DNA from: Candidatus Thorarchaeota archaeon
GTDB taxonomy: Archaea; Asgardarchaeota; Thorarchaeia; Thorarchaeales; Thorarchaeaceae
Length of the DNA: 31,814 bases
Reading direction: 5' to 3'
NCBI GenBank assembly: GCA_048882385.1
Contig: JBHLRQ010000029.1
Coordinates: 1-31,814 of the forward strand
Every line of letters begins with the position of its first letter. Position 1 is the stretch's first letter. The position numbers and the translations under genes are program-made. The notes under the pieces were generated by a model. The model saw nothing but the letters and a program-made list of their open reading frames with translations. It did not search any database and was not told where the DNA came from. Below, in pieces: positions 5,373-31,258 of this stretch.

Positions 5373-6647
5373 CTAATGACCTAAATCGTCAAATGTTACA
5401 ATCTTCATTTCGTTAGGTTTACTCTCAATGTCGGCTATAGCAGCTCCGATTAAGAACTCTGTCTTTTTCTTACTTGCAATGTCAACAAGACGTTGAGTTA
5501 TTACTCCATCAAAAACAATTGCAGGAACTATATCCTGATCTTCCAGTGTCTTTGCTAGTTCAGCTACTCCACACTCTACAAGGACATTCTTTTTCTCATC
5601 AAACAAAATTGCTTTGAATGCCTCCTTTATGTCATCAATTCTCGCAACGTATGCCTCATCCACAGTTATGGGTTCTTTTCGTTGAGGCCTGCGAGTTGGT
5701 GGTGTTCGGCGGTCAACGCGTTCATCCACTCTCCTTGGCTCCCTACGAGTACGAGTGGGCTTTTTAGCAACATGTTTTTGTCTTACAGGACTTGTTTTTC
5801 TTTCCTTGACTAAGGCAAGGGCTTTTTCAGCTGGTATTTGTGTCTGAAGTGCTTTCGCCACTTCACGTCTTGTGAGGTCTTCAACTTCCTTGCCTTCAGG
5901 AGCTCTGGCAATATAGTCTACCTTTGCCACCTGCATAAGTTCTCTCAGGATAAGATCGCCACCCCTATCGCCATCAAGAAAAGCAATCACTTTCTTGCCT
6001 CTCTTTTTCGTGAGGTCTGCAATGCTTTTTGGAACGTGTGTCCCTTCCACTGCTACAGTGTTGGTAATTCCGCATTTAATCAGGTTAATGACATCAGCCC
6101 TGCCTTCAACAATGATTATTTCTTTGCTCTTGGTAATATCTGAGCCTGCGGGTAAGCCATCTGTACCAAACTTGGATACTTGGACTTTGCCTCCTTTTGT
6201 GACAGCAGTCGTAATCTCATCAGCACCTGGCGAGATATCCTCTTCCCATCCCTTGAGTATACTAATTGCCCTACTCACAACTTTTCGTCTTTTTGCACCA
6301 CGGATGTCTTCCAGCTTCTCAAGAATGACCTTTGCTGTACAGGGACCTACTCTGTCTACAGTTTCCAGAGCTGCAGCAAGTATTGCAGTGGCAGTCTTGT
6401 TTAGAGAAACTGGAATTACAATCTCTCCAGTACTTTTTCCTTTCGCTGATCTGATTGCAATCTGAATCCTTCCTATACGACCGGTTCGCTGAAGTTCACG
6501 TAAATCGAGGTCTTCTCCGAGTAATCCTTCAGTTTGGCCAAATACTGCACCAACAACATCGGGCTTGTCTACGACTCCATCAATTTCGATTTTTGCTCGT
6601 ATGACATATTTGGCTGTACTCTGGTCGAAGTCTGTTCCTATTTCTAT
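5373..6647 (-). CDS. dnaG: DnaG-type primase / exosome-associated DnaG; putative ATA start
   Basis: TOPRIM IIVEGRADV and FLDGDRGG. The conserved N-terminus (AKYVIRAKIEIDGVVDKPDVVGAVFGQTEGLLG..LDLRELQRTGRIGRI) continues in frame upstream of 6278 to a TAG at 6657-6659. Confidence 0.92.
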   Translation of the reverse strand: MEIGTDFDQSTAKYVIRAKIEIDGVVDKPDVVGAVFGQTEGLLGEDLDLRELQRTGRIGRIQIAIRSAKGKSTGEIVIPVSLNKTATAILAAALETVDRVGPCTAKVILEKLEDIRGAKRRKVVSRAISILKGWEEDISPGADEITTAVTKGGKVQVSKFGTDGLPAGSDITKSKEIIIVEGRADVINLIKCGITNTVAVEGTHVPKSIADLTKKRGKKVIAFLDGDRGGDLILRELMQVAKVDYIARAPEGKEVEDLTRREVAKALQTQIPAEKALALVKERKTSPVRQKHVAKKPTRTRREPRRVDERVDRRTPPTRRPQRKEPITVDEAYVARIDDIKEAFKAILFDEKKNVLVECGVAELAKTLEDQDIVPAIVFDGVITQRLVDIASKKKTEFLIGAAIADIESKPNEMKIVTFDDLGH

Positions 6648-6905
6648 ACACGTCTCCTATGTTCTGCTACCACGTACCCTCGCGTATAGACCGAGGTGAT
6701 GCCTACCTGCGTTTCGTCACGGACTGGCCTATGCCTCTTGACTTTGATTGGAATAAGACCTCTCTTGATGCTACTCTAATCCATGCCCGAACATATGCTA
6801 TGATAATCGTGATGATTTCGTGAATGATAATCGTCCTAAGACTTTGCGCAGTGTTCTCATCGACTCACTATTGGTCCAGAGCCGGAGCACACGTGGCGCT
6901 GTGAT

Positions 6906-7025
6906 ATGATGATATGATGATTTGCAGAGCATGTGCGGTTTCTGTCCGCCATGCTGTACACTGGAGCTGTTTCCCCAGTGTATTTGAAGATGTCGTTATC
7001 ACCATATAGACTGTGTTCTGACATC
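6906..7025 (+). ncRNA. Candidate box C/D-like sRNA
   Basis: ATGATGA at 6906 and 6914, TGAAGA near 6985, CTGA 7018-7021, terminal GATG/CATC pairing, two internal hairpins. Confidence 0.35.
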
Positions 7026-7100
7026 CTAAAGAACTACAAGAAAATGAGAAATTCGCGCCAAGTGGCAATCCTAATAACGAAAAAGATTCAGATTCTCTTG

Positions 7101-7395
7101 TTCAGGAGTATTCTGTCCCGTTCACGAGGGCGCACTGAGGTTATCCAATGAGGTGTTGCGCATAGGGCGGGTCACATCCTGAATGTATGCCTGCCAAGTA
7201 CCAATAGGATGAACCAAAACGGACTCGCTTGATAGGGATGACAGTCCTTTAGATGAACAGCGGGTCACCCCGGTTTCATACATTGGCGGGCCGGTTGATG
7301 TCAGAACGCCCGACACGAGACAGCTCAGCGGAGCCAGAGGTAATCTCTGATGCTGTGATGCTGGGAGTTAGTGTGTAGGGTAACAGACATCAGCC
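7101..7395 (+). ncRNA. Candidate three-hairpin H/ACA-like guide RNA
   Basis: Three modules, each with a closing helix, a K-turn-like GA/GA motif and ACA (7174, 7280, 7383). TATA-like TAATAA near 7072 and a T-rich tract after 7400. Confidence 0.65.
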
Positions 7396-7445
7396 ACCAT
7401 TCTTCTAGATTTCTTTTAGCCCCCAAGTTTGACAATGACTCAAAA

Positions 7446-8222
7446 CTACCTGCGCCTAATGAAAAGGACTACTGCAACCAAAGCAGTGAGAAATCCTAGG
7501 CTAACGGTTACTAAAACTAATGGAATTTCACTACTTGTTTCAATTGAGTCAAATACTTCAATATTATCAAGTGCCCAATCAACTCGCGTGTAGAATCCAA
7601 AATATTGAGTCGTAGTTATATCGGTATCAACAGCTTGGAGTATTTGGGTGCCATTGAGATAGATCGTTATTAGTCCATCAGAGGTCCTTGTGATGGCGAA
7701 CTGATGTAAAATTCCAATTGTTGTTTCTTCAGCCTCTCCAGAGTATGTATCAAGAAGTGTTACCTTGCTATCGAAATATTTCTCTATTCTATAGCTGAAA
7801 AATCTCTTTTCAGTACTTGAAGCATGCCTGAAACTAAGTGCCAAATACGAGTCAATGTCAGTTGGCACATCTGGAATCATAAAGTACACTCGAGTCATAT
7901 CATTGATCGACTTTTGTATGGGCCAGTTTCCTATCTCTTCAAGTTCTAGTTTCCATGTCCCAAAAGAGATTGTACTGTTACGATATGCTAGAATTGAATC
8001 ACCTATAGAAAGTGACAGTCTCTCTTGACGGGAGGCATTAATTTCCATTCCACGAAGGCGCCCGTCCTCAAGTCTACATGACTGTGTGTTCCATATCCCA
8101 GAATCAAGATCATCAAAAGTTTCTGACCACACAAGCACAGAACAACCCAACTGTGGAGTAGATGAGAGAATCAATAGTGCAGTCACTATGCTAAGACAGA
8201 AGACAATTTTCCTACTCATCAT
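7446..8222 (-). CDS. Secreted, C-terminally anchored protein with a beta-rich (LamG/ConA-like) domain
   Basis: N-terminal signal-like helix, WSETFDD, HQFAITR..G.ITIYLNG, DNIEV, C-terminal TM helix followed by RRR. Confidence 0.6.
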   Translation of the reverse strand: MMSRKIVFCLSIVTALLILSSTPQLGCSVLVWSETFDDLDSGIWNTQSCRLEDGRLRGMEINASRQERLSLSIGDSILAYRNSTISFGTWKLELEEIGNWPIQKSINDMTRVYFMIPDVPTDIDSYLALSFRHASSTEKRFFSYRIEKYFDSKVTLLDTYSGEAEETTIGILHQFAITRTSDGLITIYLNGTQILQAVDTDITTTQYFGFYTRVDWALDNIEVFDSIETSSEIPLVLVTVSLGFLTALVAVVLFIRRR

Positions 8223-8329
8223 CCCATCACCTCCATTGATTTACGATGAAAACCAAAAGAGCAAGACAAATTGAATAGAACGGACTTAATAAATCGAATC
8301 AACTAGACAAGAATACTGATATCATCGAG

Positions 8330-9001
8330 CTATATTTCAGTTGATTCTCCAGGTCGAAGGATGATTACATTCGTTTCTGGACTTCGTTCAGAAACAAGTG
8401 CCTTGAACTTCTCGGGGTTTGCTTCTATTACCGGAAATGTGTCATAGTGCATCGGAATGACATTTCTTGGTTTGAGAAGCTTTGTTGCTAGTGCTGCCTG
8501 GTGAATGTCCATCACAAAGTAACTACCGATAGGCAAAAGAGCGAGATCCAGAGGTGCATATAACTCTCCCAGTAACTCCATGGATGAGAATATCCCTGTG
8601 TCTCCAGCATGGTAGAACGAATTGCTCGGGAATCTGACAATGAATCCAGTTGGGGCTCCTGTACCTGCTGAATGAAATGCTTGGACAAGAGTAACAACAA
8701 CTCCTCCTATATTTACACTGCCCCCTATGTTTAGTGTGTGAATGTCCTCCACGCCCTGGTCTCCTGCCTTGTGTGCCAGCTCATTGAGTGCCACAAAGAC
8801 TGCCCCAGTCCTCTTACAGATATCCCGACCCTCAACAAATCCATGGTCAGTGTGGTCGTGAGTGATCAAAACAATGTCTGCTGTATCGACGTCGTCTATT
8901 GTGATGGGTGATGTAGGACCCGTAAGCCAGGGATCAATATATACCGTTTTTCCATCTTCTTCGATCTTAAATGATGCGTGACCTAGAAATGTGACTTTCA
9001 T
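8330..9001 (-). CDS. Metallo-beta-lactamase-fold hydrolase (UPF0173-like)
   Basis: LGHASF, IDPW, THDHTDH, YHAGDTG, IPMHYDTFP. Confidence 0.92.
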   Translation of the reverse strand: MKVTFLGHASFKIEEDGKTVYIDPWLTGPTSPITIDDVDTADIVLITHDHTDHGFVEGRDICKRTGAVFVALNELAHKAGDQGVEDIHTLNIGGSVNIGGVVVTLVQAFHSAGTGAPTGFIVRFPSNSFYHAGDTGIFSSMELLGELYAPLDLALLPIGSYFVMDIHQAALATKLLKPRNVIPMHYDTFPVIEANPEKFKALVSERSPETNVIILRPGESTEI

Positions 9002-16543: not shown

Positions 16544-16681
16544 GGGGCGGTGGCCTAGTTCGGTATGGCGACGGGCTCCAGATCTGGGTGCATTTCGCAT
16601 CCAAAATGAACGGGTCAATAATGACCGTCGTCAATTGGCGAAACTCGTCGGTCGTGAGTTCAAATCTCACTCGCCCCACCA
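16544..16681 (+). tRNA. tRNA-Trp(CCA) with ~61-nt intron (16582-16642) and encoded CCA
   Basis: GGGGCGG/TCGCCCC acceptor, ACGGG-CTCCAG..A-CTCGT anticodon arm, GTGAG-TTCAAAT-CTCAC T arm, ACCA end. Confidence 0.93.
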
Positions 16682-31139: not shown

Positions 31140-31258
31140 TGGCGCCGAGGATGAGATTCGAACTCATGCATCCGAAGATACTGGTTTGCCTGGTCTAGGA
31201 GTGCATAACACTCCGATTTTCAAGACCAGCGCCGTAATCCGGGCTTGGCTACCTCGGC
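31140..31258 (-). tRNA. tRNA-Ser(TGA) with 32-nt intron (31187-31218) and encoded CCA
   Basis: GCCGAGG/CCTCGGC acceptor, CTGGT-CTTGAA..A-ACCAG, variable arm ATC-TTCG-GAT, G73, BHB helix CTTG/CAGG. Confidence 0.93.

Follow-up and report, generated by a model that had tools for sequence, protein, structure and literature searches.

According to the text of their description, Pab40, Pf7, Pho40, and Afu4 are box H/ACA small RNAs (sRNAs) with three motifs, of which motif 1 of Pab40 is assigned to pseudouridine 2588 and motif 3 to pseudouridine 2016 in helix 69 of P. abyssi, and for motif 2 of Pf7 and Afu4, the expected target is the counterpart of P. abyssi position 2678, which is modified in Haloarcula; the sites at 2016 and 2588 are described as highly conserved in eukaryal rRNA (PMC2377435). 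The text on Haloferax volcanii sR-h45 assigns pseudouridine 2605 to its stem-loop 1 (SL1) and pseudouridines 1940 and 1942 to SL2, which makes both of these helix-69 modifications with an unpaired UAUG (UNUN) (PMC7075261), and the halobacterial hairpins are reported to be homologues of stems II and III of Pf7, with stem I missing there (PMC2584109). In this study, we analyzed a stretch of 31,814 nucleotides (nt) of a Candidatus Thorarchaeota archaeon (contig JBHLRQ010000029.1 of assembly GCA_048882385.1), hereafter the window, which is contig C29 of an archaeal metagenome-assembled genome (MAG) of 3.7 Mb and 95% completeness. An RNA gene of ~295 nt with three hairpins was located at 7100-7397 on the + strand, inside a noncoding stretch of ~750 nt, and we identify it, with a probability of roughly 0.88, as a three-hairpin guide sRNA of the box H/ACA class, the Asgard counterpart of Pf7, Pab40, and Afu4.

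As in Pf7, Pab40, Pho40, and Afu4, for which the published text reports three H/ACA motifs, each with a kink-turn (K-turn) or K-loop and an ANA box (PMC2377435; PMC4652768), the RNA is composed of three H/ACA motifs, referred to as units 1 to 3. The structure was examined in an alignment (A2) of the window and 39 Thorarchaeota loci (40 sequences), which omits 11 of the 50 loci carrying units 2 and 3 (10 with no match to unit 1 and 1 cut by the end of its contig). The features of the units, in which P1 and P2 denote the lower and upper stems and the C-stem denotes the canonical stem of the K-turn, are as follows:

7100-7184, + strand: unit 1, with closing helix 7100-7107/7177-7184 and 5' loop 7108-7114
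7115-7123/7165-7173 and 7130-7136/7152-7159, + strand: P1 and P2 of unit 1, the latter with bulged U7156
7124-7129 and 7160-7164, + strand: 5' guide and 3' guide of unit 1
7137-7138 and 7150-7151, + strand: GA dinucleotides of the unit 1 K-turn, with C-stem 7139-7140/7145-7146
7174-7176, + strand: ACA box of unit 1, flanked by P1 and the closing helix; ACA in 40/40 sequences
7189-7291, + strand: unit 2, with closing helix 7189-7197/7283-7291 and an 11-nt 5' loop 7198-7208 that holds a 2-bp mini-hairpin
7209-7215/7272-7279 and 7222-7229/7259-7266, + strand: P1 and P2 of unit 2
7216-7221 and 7267-7271, + strand: 5' guide and 3' guide of unit 2
7231-7232 with 7252-7256, + strand: GA and GAUGA of the unit 2 K-turn, with C-stem 7234-7239/7244-7249
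7280-7282, + strand: ACA box of unit 2; ACA in 38/40 and AUA in 2/40 sequences, hence ANA in 40/40
7293-7395, + strand: unit 3, with closing helix 7293-7302/7386-7395 and 5' loop 7303-7308
7309-7311/7378-7380 plus 7313-7316/7371-7374, and 7324-7330/7359-7365, + strand: split P1 and P2 of unit 3
7317-7323 and from 7366, + strand: 5' guide and 3' guide of unit 3
7331-7332 and 7357-7358, + strand: GA dinucleotides of the unit 3 K-turn, with a 3-nt bulge at 7354-7356
7333-7334/7352-7353 and 7336-7339/7345-7348, + strand: C-stem of unit 3
7383-7385, + strand: ACA box of unit 3; ACA in 38/40, AUA in 1, and AGA in 1 sequence

The linkers between the units were 3-4 nt (variable) and then 1 nt. P1 comprised 7-9 base pairs (bp) in units 1 and 2 and was split into 3 + 4 bp with an internal loop in unit 3, and in each unit, the ACA box faced 6-11 unpaired 5' bases across an internal loop and was followed by a helix, not a free tail or linker. 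A first-pass annotation of the window had already drawn three units with their GA motifs, ACA boxes at 7174, 7280, and 7383, and closing helices at 7101-7107/7177-7183, 7189-7197/7283-7291, and 7293-7302/7386-7395, all of which stood as it had given them. Its proposal of an unannotated multi-hairpin H/ACA guide is supported by the architecture, the K-turn GA, the ANA boxes, and spacings that largely fit the known rules, as well as by agreement with published targets, and the extra helix that it had seen around each ACA proved to be real, conserved, and covarying.

RNAfold, which the first-pass annotation had suggested as a check, predicted exactly three hairpins on the + strand with an energy of -114.7 kcal/mol (z -2.45; 2/100 shuffles equaled it), and the fold of the - strand was at chance level (z 0.02); the + strand was assigned because of the G-U pairs and this fold z-score. 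Covariation among the relatives next to dnaG, another of the suggested checks, was counted over a hand-curated structure of 89 pairs in A2, in which 94.1% of the cells paired (35-45% in slid controls), 44/89 pairs changed on both sides (13-21 in slid controls), and 245 cells showed a two-sided change (27-56 in slid controls). None of 500 shuffles matched any of these observed values, relatedness being known to inflate such shuffle tests. The closing helices ranked among the best-supported helices of the structure, with 6/8 pairs covarying and 92.2% of cells paired in unit 1, 5/9 and 97.8% in unit 2, and 6/10 and 98.5% in unit 3. Among the other helices, covariation was observed for 4/8 pairs of P1 in unit 1 and 6/9 pairs of P2 in unit 2, and it also set the register of P2 in unit 1, with U7156 bulged and A7134-U7154 changing to G-C.

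The P1-pocket-P2 layout was present in all three units and was backed by covariation. According to the text of the published descriptions, the archaeal rules are a GA stem of 8-11 layers, typically 10, and an ACA located 14-16 nt from the pocket (PMC4652768; PMC7075261). The GA stems had 9, 11, and 9 layers in units 1, 2, and 3, respectively, within the range of 8-11, and the distance from P2 to the ACA was 14, 13, and 17 nt, so that the 13-14 nt noted for all three units in the first-pass annotation holds for units 1 and 2 and fails for unit 3; in the latter, the distance is 16 nt when measured from the final guide base of the predicted target duplex. In each K-turn, the 5' strand of the upper stem contributes GA and the 3' strand contributes a 3-nt bulge and GA; the canonical stem is on the apical side, which is its orientation in solved archaeal H/ACA ribonucleoproteins (RNPs). 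As the first-pass annotation would have it, these motifs were kept in the homologues: the ANA box was retained in 40/40 sequences of A2 in each unit, and the K-turn GA in 40/40 for unit 1, 39/40 for unit 2 (GAUGA 39/40), and 40/40 for unit 3. Furthermore, the pocket bases were the most conserved single-stranded bases of the RNA, the guide cores being CGAGG (40/40) and GCA (40/40) in unit 1, AACG (39/40) and CACCC (40/40) in unit 2, and GAGAC (40/40) and AGUUAGUG (36/40; inner GUUAGUG 38/40) in unit 3. Genes for Cbf5 (421.8 bits), Nop10, Gar1, and two L7Ae-family proteins are present in the same genome. L7Ae would sit on the K-turn of each hairpin and Cbf5-Nop10-Gar1 on its lower stem, with the PUA domain of Cbf5 on the ACA; the two internal-loop strands would anneal to the 23S rRNA segments that flank a uridine, and Cbf5 would convert this uridine to pseudouridine. 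We infer protein binding, pseudouridylation, and the role of the closing helices from these features.

Targets were scanned in the rRNA genes of relatives from the genus, with numbering transferred by MAFFT to E. coli (Ec) rrlH and rrsH, and they were predicted before the comparison with published guides. They became apparent only once covariation had set the register of P2 in unit 1 and the ACA-spacing rule had been applied; scans with small loops, as RNAfold or the first-pass annotation had drawn them, gave nothing convincing, and a floating-junction scan gave mostly noise. For unit 1, the target was UGC-UU-CCUCG, in which the U is Ec2496, with 3-5 + 5 bp leaving the canonical unpaired UN, and this was its only canonical site in the large-subunit (LSU) and small-subunit (SSU) rRNAs. 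For unit 2, it was GGGU...CGUU, with pairs at G2581-U2584 and C2591-U2594 (4 + 4-5 bp; C2590 is added if the basal pair of P2 opens), leaving U2585, U2586, A2587, G2588, and A2589 unpaired. For unit 3, it was ACUAAC...GUCUC around the loop of helix 69, with 6-7 bp (Ec1909-1914/15) and 5 bp (Ec1920-1924), all Watson-Crick, leaving U1915, A1916, U1917, G1918, and A1919 unpaired. All three sites were identical in the four LSU genes recovered from the genus. The search for pocket-complementary sites that the first-pass annotation had recommended thus returned a candidate for every unit, with a total of at least 8 bp each: the predicted targets are U2496 in the peptidyl-transferase region for unit 1, U2585 or U2586 in the peptidyl-transferase centre for unit 2, and U1915 and/or U1917 in the helix-69 loop for unit 3, the exact base in the last two units being a matter of deduction. 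A canonical 8 + 4-bp (12-bp) site for unit 3 in the LSU of one relative (G014, position 2308; Ec~2179) was dropped, as the other 3/4 LSUs of the genus carry C, not U, and also differ downstream.

The targets of Pab35, which we take to be Ec2457, 2605, and 2580, give a constant offset of 92, by which P. abyssi 2588 presumably equals Ec2496 and 2678 equals Ec2586. On this numbering, the three units are predicted to address Ec2496, Ec2586, and helix 69 in the same order as the published text gives for Pf7 and Afu4, and by this analogy, the RNA probably works like the Pf7/Pab40/Afu4 family in function and layout, as an orthologue. Yeast pseudouridines 2258/2260 are, by our own offset, presumably Ec1915/1917, and 2865 is presumably Ec2496. 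The text of a published account assigns the former pair to snR191 and the latter to snR46 (PMC5699541). These eukaryotic guides share the conserved target positions and are two-hairpin H-box/ACA RNAs with no K-turns. The RNA also resembles sR-h45, in which, as far as its text describes, a 5' hairpin for the Ec2586 equivalent is followed by a 3' hairpin for helix 69, the order of units 2 and 3, and Thorarchaeota genomes with no unit 1 have the same two-hairpin content. In contrast, a 56-nt spacer with an H box is reported in the text on sR-h45, where pseudouridine 2605 is the third U of the same UUU (PMC7075261), whereas the closing helices of units 2 and 3 are separated here by a linker of 1 nt. 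The 3' guide of unit 2 in Thorarchaeota is topped by CACCC, unlike the two A's in sR-h45; because of this, U2585 is also unpaired, and the modified base may differ. Compared with the Pyrobaculum H/ACA-like sRNAs, whose guide hairpins have K-turns and noncanonical lower parts and for which the published text reports loss of the lower stem and, in many cases, of the ACA (PMC4652768), the present RNA shares K-turn hairpins with unusual lower parts but retains both elements and has an extra helix besides.

At two places, 2594 and the 1910-1920 pair, a change in the rRNA is accompanied by a change in the guide. Thorarchaeota have U2594 in the rRNA and AACG in the unit 2 guide; four 23S sequences, from other Asgard genomes with an R1 match (see below), have C2594 (4/4), and their unit 2 guides are GACG (2), GAUG (1), and AAUG (1). 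Similarly, the helix-69 pair of Thorarchaeota is C1910-G1920 with the guide GAGAC, and three other Asgard archaea have G1910-C1920 with a G there in the guide. The 3' guide of unit 2 in other Asgard archaea begins with AACCC and pairs through U2585, so that the first unpaired U is U2586, as in Haloferax.

The RNA was widely conserved next to dnaG. BLAST detected it in 22/24 other genomes of the genus and in 0/16 genomes outside the genus, and nhmmer detected units 2 and 3 in 50/54 dnaG loci titled Thorarchaeota or Promethearchaeota and unit 1 in 40/54; in every one of those 50 loci, the RNA lay 5' of dnaG on the opposite strand, and each of the remaining 4/54 had <400 nt of upstream sequence. 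Among 26 dnaG loci of Bathyarchaeia, nhmmer gave one weak match (E 0.0066), which was treated as noise. Unit 1 was absent from 10/50 loci with units 2 and 3, and BLAST found it nowhere in 7 genomes of the genus that retain units 2 and 3; in the loci with no unit 1, what remains is its closing helix, reduced to a short stub hairpin whose distance from the conserved TAATAA box upstream is unchanged. A covariance model built on unit 3 (R1) gave one full-length match per genome in 49/151 genomes sampled across the phylum, comprising 26/26 other genomes of the family, 1/1 of the sister family, and 21/123 of other families, and matches to unit 3 extended to a second phylum, that of a Bathyarchaeia genome (22/151 genomes sampled). 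When the sequences upstream of 14 R1 matches were folded, unit-2-like and unit-1-like hairpins were observed in many. A unit-2-like hairpin was also seen by eye in a Thermoproteota-type locus (L171) where a pattern search had missed it, and in some other lineages the helix-69 hairpin stands with no visible partners. In the sister family (L142, genome G025), unit 1 is directly followed by unit 3, with no unit 2 between, and an additional outer helix of 9 bp encloses unit 3.

Transcription of the RNA probably starts at a promoter of its own and proceeds on the + strand. The flanking signals are as follows:

7052-7078, + strand: conserved promoter-like box ending in the TATA-like TAATAA (7072-7077), 22 nt before G7100
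7400-7417, + strand: T-rich tract read from the sequence, a likely transcription stop

The box at 7052-7078, likely an archaeal promoter, varied hardly at all among the 8 sequences that extend over it (the window and 7 relatives; an eighth relative, L020, has gaps only at 7052-7078), and its spacing to the first helix is unchanged in genomes that have lost the interior of unit 1. The 3' flanks were T-rich yet not conserved in the 40 sequences of A2. Short metatranscriptome contigs from 3 runs of 3 studies, 90-99% identical to the window, spanned 7068-7332, 7214-7365, and 7303-7414, and also a conserved region at 6601-6921; they offer a weak hint of transcription of the RNA.

Several observations weigh against the identification of the RNA as a three-hairpin guide. 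These metatranscriptome contigs come from relatives, may represent DNA carry-over, and show neither strand, ends, nor level, and stretches with no coverage carry no meaning; one of them begins at 7068, which is at odds with the inferred start at 7100. The MAG itself gave no 16S or 23S rRNA match, and the targets were read in relatives. When the rRNA was shuffled 2,000 times, with search patterns that were defined after the match had been seen, sites of the observed type arose in 13 shuffles for unit 1 and 3 for unit 3, and in 798 for unit 2, whose complementarity is therefore not significant alone. The target of unit 2 leaves 5-6 bases unpaired instead of 2, and that of unit 3 leaves 5, versus 4 in Haloferax SL2, although the text of earlier reports holds precedents for more than two unpaired target bases (PMC7075261; PMC2377435). 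The ACA spacing of unit 2 is one below the 14-16 nt rule (14 if the basal pair of P2 opens), and that of unit 3 is 17 nt when counted from P2. The covariation of guide and target concerns two positions in 3-4 outgroup rRNAs, with an A-C mismatch at 2594 for the AAUG guide (G151). The rejected site at Ec~2179 was excluded solely by its lack of conservation in the genus, and a permissive scan allowing 2-7 unpaired bases gave rival sites of similar score, such as Ec1769 (unit 2) and Ec1844/1704 (unit 1), which use nonconserved guide bases or G-U pairs. Finally, the comparison with Rfam H/ACA models proposed in the first-pass annotation turned out negative: the HgcG model (RF00064; gathering score 77 bits) gave no match at E<=10 in the region or the whole genome, and Rfam 15 assigned no family to the region at gathering scores, nor to 6600-7600 at E<=10. 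HgcG was below its cut-off in 14/14 control genomes too, indicating a narrow model. Because it fails this model, the RNA was not filed under RF00064.

The RNA further differs from Pab40 in length, ~295 nt versus the 234-nt transcript given in the text describing the latter (PMC4652768), and in having no detectable sequence or covariance-model similarity to HgcG. In addition, each ACA here is followed by a closing helix, a feature with no mention for Pab40 or sR-h45 in the text of their descriptions (figures and sequences aside); Pab40 presumably has none, as its 234-nt transcript leaves little room. The covarying helix of 8-10 bp right after each ACA thus looks new, an apparently undescribed addition to a known lineage of guides. 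To examine its distribution, two further alignments were made: in A4 (23 R1 matches from outside the genus), 10/10 pairs of the unit 3 closing helix covaried and 91.9% of the cells paired, and in A5 (23 matches from the phylum of the Bathyarchaeia genome; 22/151 genomes and one more), 10/10 pairs covaried and 97.0% paired. Both alignments were fitted to the structure of R1, which rewards the helix, so hairpins lacking it would be under-detected. By RNAfold alone, a closing helix was found around the unit upstream of unit 3 in 8/13 non-Thorarchaeota or distant loci (L143, L144, L145, L150, L153, L154, L156, and L157).

The closing helices would probably keep each module folding independently with its strands held together. 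A closing helix would matter most in unit 3, because the lower stem there is 3 + 4 bp and the predicted rRNA duplex would invade two of its pairs. It is conceivable, but in our estimation doubtful, that RNAs with a closed ACA form a distinct and ancient structural class of H/ACA RNAs in Asgard and Bathyarchaeia-type archaea, in which Cbf5 recognizes an ACA placed within an internal loop and the helix is a functional module. If so, the helix module could be required for the side-by-side assembly of several RNPs on one RNA, hold the pocket during invasion by the substrate, or define the ends of the RNA. At seven loci from other Asgard families (L146, L150, L151, L153, L156, L157, and L158), inspection by eye showed a C-box-like RAUGA(A/U)GG at the 5' side of the unit-1-like hairpin and a D-box-like YC-(C/U)(A/U)GA-GC just after its ACA; together, these flanks resemble a K-turn that closes the hairpin, where Thorarchaeota have a plain Watson-Crick helix. 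Should the structural class be real, this closing element of unit 1 in non-Thorarchaeota Asgard archaea, which looks like a second, C/D-type K-turn, would give the hairpin two L7Ae sites.

The first-pass annotation had suggested that the closing helices could mark processing or circularization, and the most serious alternative to a three-hairpin guide follows from it, namely that the transcript is a precursor in which the closing helices are processing signals and the units are excised or circularized into single-hairpin guides. Each unit is indeed a self-contained closed module joined by short and variable linkers, unit 1 can disappear from loci that keep units 2 and 3, as described above, and the helix-69 hairpin occurs with no visible partners in some lineages. 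However, the closing helices are continuous and have none of the two 3-nt bulges of a bulge-helix-bulge site, and the metatranscriptome contigs bridge units 1-2-3 (7068-7332) and 2-3 (7214-7365), with zero joints reported. Pab40 and sR-h45, moreover, accumulate as multi-hairpin RNAs according to the text of the respective reports (PMC7075261; PMC2377435). We therefore regard the precursor as unlikely, and the proposed mark of processing or circularization as unsupported.

A structured L7Ae-binding RNA with a different function, for instance as a scaffold or in the regulation of dnaG or of a nearby gene with a metallo-beta-lactamase fold, in which the complementarity to rRNA would be coincidental, is far less probable still. 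The fixed synteny with dnaG, the departure of units 2 and 3 from the canonical rule of two unpaired nucleotides, and the failure of every Rfam H/ACA family to match would suit such a role, but a set of three targets in the order of Pf7 is hard to obtain by chance, guide bases shift together with the rRNA, and the ANA boxes and GA-stem lengths agree with H/ACA rules. The RNA is also not a leader, because dnaG is oriented away from its gene and the downstream gene toward it. A divergent signal recognition particle (SRP) RNA, RNase P RNA, or other known RNA of ~300 nt, as the size of ~295 nt and the K-turns (which archaeal RNase P RNAs also carry) might suggest, can practically be set aside, because the RNase P RNA was found on contig C4 (164.2 bits) and an SRP RNA candidate on contig C9 (95.1 bits, just below the family cut-off of 96.5), and the strong match to SRP or RNase P that the first-pass annotation had named as a possible refutation was absent from 6600-7600 at E<=10, refuting that reading.

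As a three-hairpin guide, the RNA is otherwise an expected housekeeping RNA, and its interest lies elsewhere. It would be the first Asgard H/ACA guide with assigned targets, as literature searches, one of which probably could not match the term 'H/ACA', found none in print, and Asgard archaea are the closest known relatives of eukaryotes. The Pf7/sR-h45 guide for helix 69 and the peptidyl-transferase centre, the two most conserved clusters of ribosomal pseudouridines, appears to be conserved far beyond Euryarchaeota. The closing helix changes the picture of how the PUA domain of Cbf5 meets the ACA, and since Rfam models miss the RNA, a new family could be built from A2, A4, and A5.

The RNA gene lies between dnaG (Toprim/DnaG) on the - strand on one side and an open reading frame (ORF) of 258 amino acids on the other. 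The DnaG frame runs from 5373 to ~6650 on the - strand, and its codon-periodic conservation reaches ~125 codons upstream of the first ATG/GTG/TTG (6278), for which reason its start codon seems to be noncanonical; a nearly invariant block lies at the 5' end of the conserved coding signal (~6650). On the other side, the ORF at 7446-8222 (258 amino acids, no Pfam match) is contained in a stretch of ~900 bp at 7440-8330 that the relatives do not have and that looks like an insertion; in the relatives, the metallo-beta-lactamase-fold gene starts within ~10 nt after the RNA.

Two further conserved elements were observed between the start of dnaG and the H/ACA gene. At 6670-6905 (+ strand), a noncoding stretch of ~240 nt contains a long-range helix, CCACGU/ACGUGG, that encloses invariant blocks; its G-U pairs favor the + strand, no Rfam family matched it, and metatranscriptome contigs of relatives cover it at 6633-6921 and 6720-6866. 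At 6905-7010 (+ strand), there is a second element of ~100 nt, with a C-box-like AUGAUGA at its start, an invariant UAUUUGAAGAUGUCG at its end, and two hairpins in which compensatory changes were seen; a C/D-like RNA or another K-turn RNA is a possible identity.

Some minor observations concern other RNA genes. On contig C4, cbf5 (49342-50298) is followed 79 nt downstream on the same strand by the gene for RNase P RNA (50377-50718). In the relatives from the genus, the 16S and 23S rRNA genes are unlinked, ~70 kb apart in one genome (G017, contig C205), and overlong rRNA matches of 2293 nt for an SSU (G014) and 3862 nt for an LSU (G009) suggest rRNA introns. In the window, ARAGORN reported zero tRNAs versus two by Rfam, both of which carry long insertions: 65 nt in the gene at 16544-16678 (+ strand) and ~45 nt in that at 31143-31258 (- strand), where the insertion falls outside the anticodon loop.

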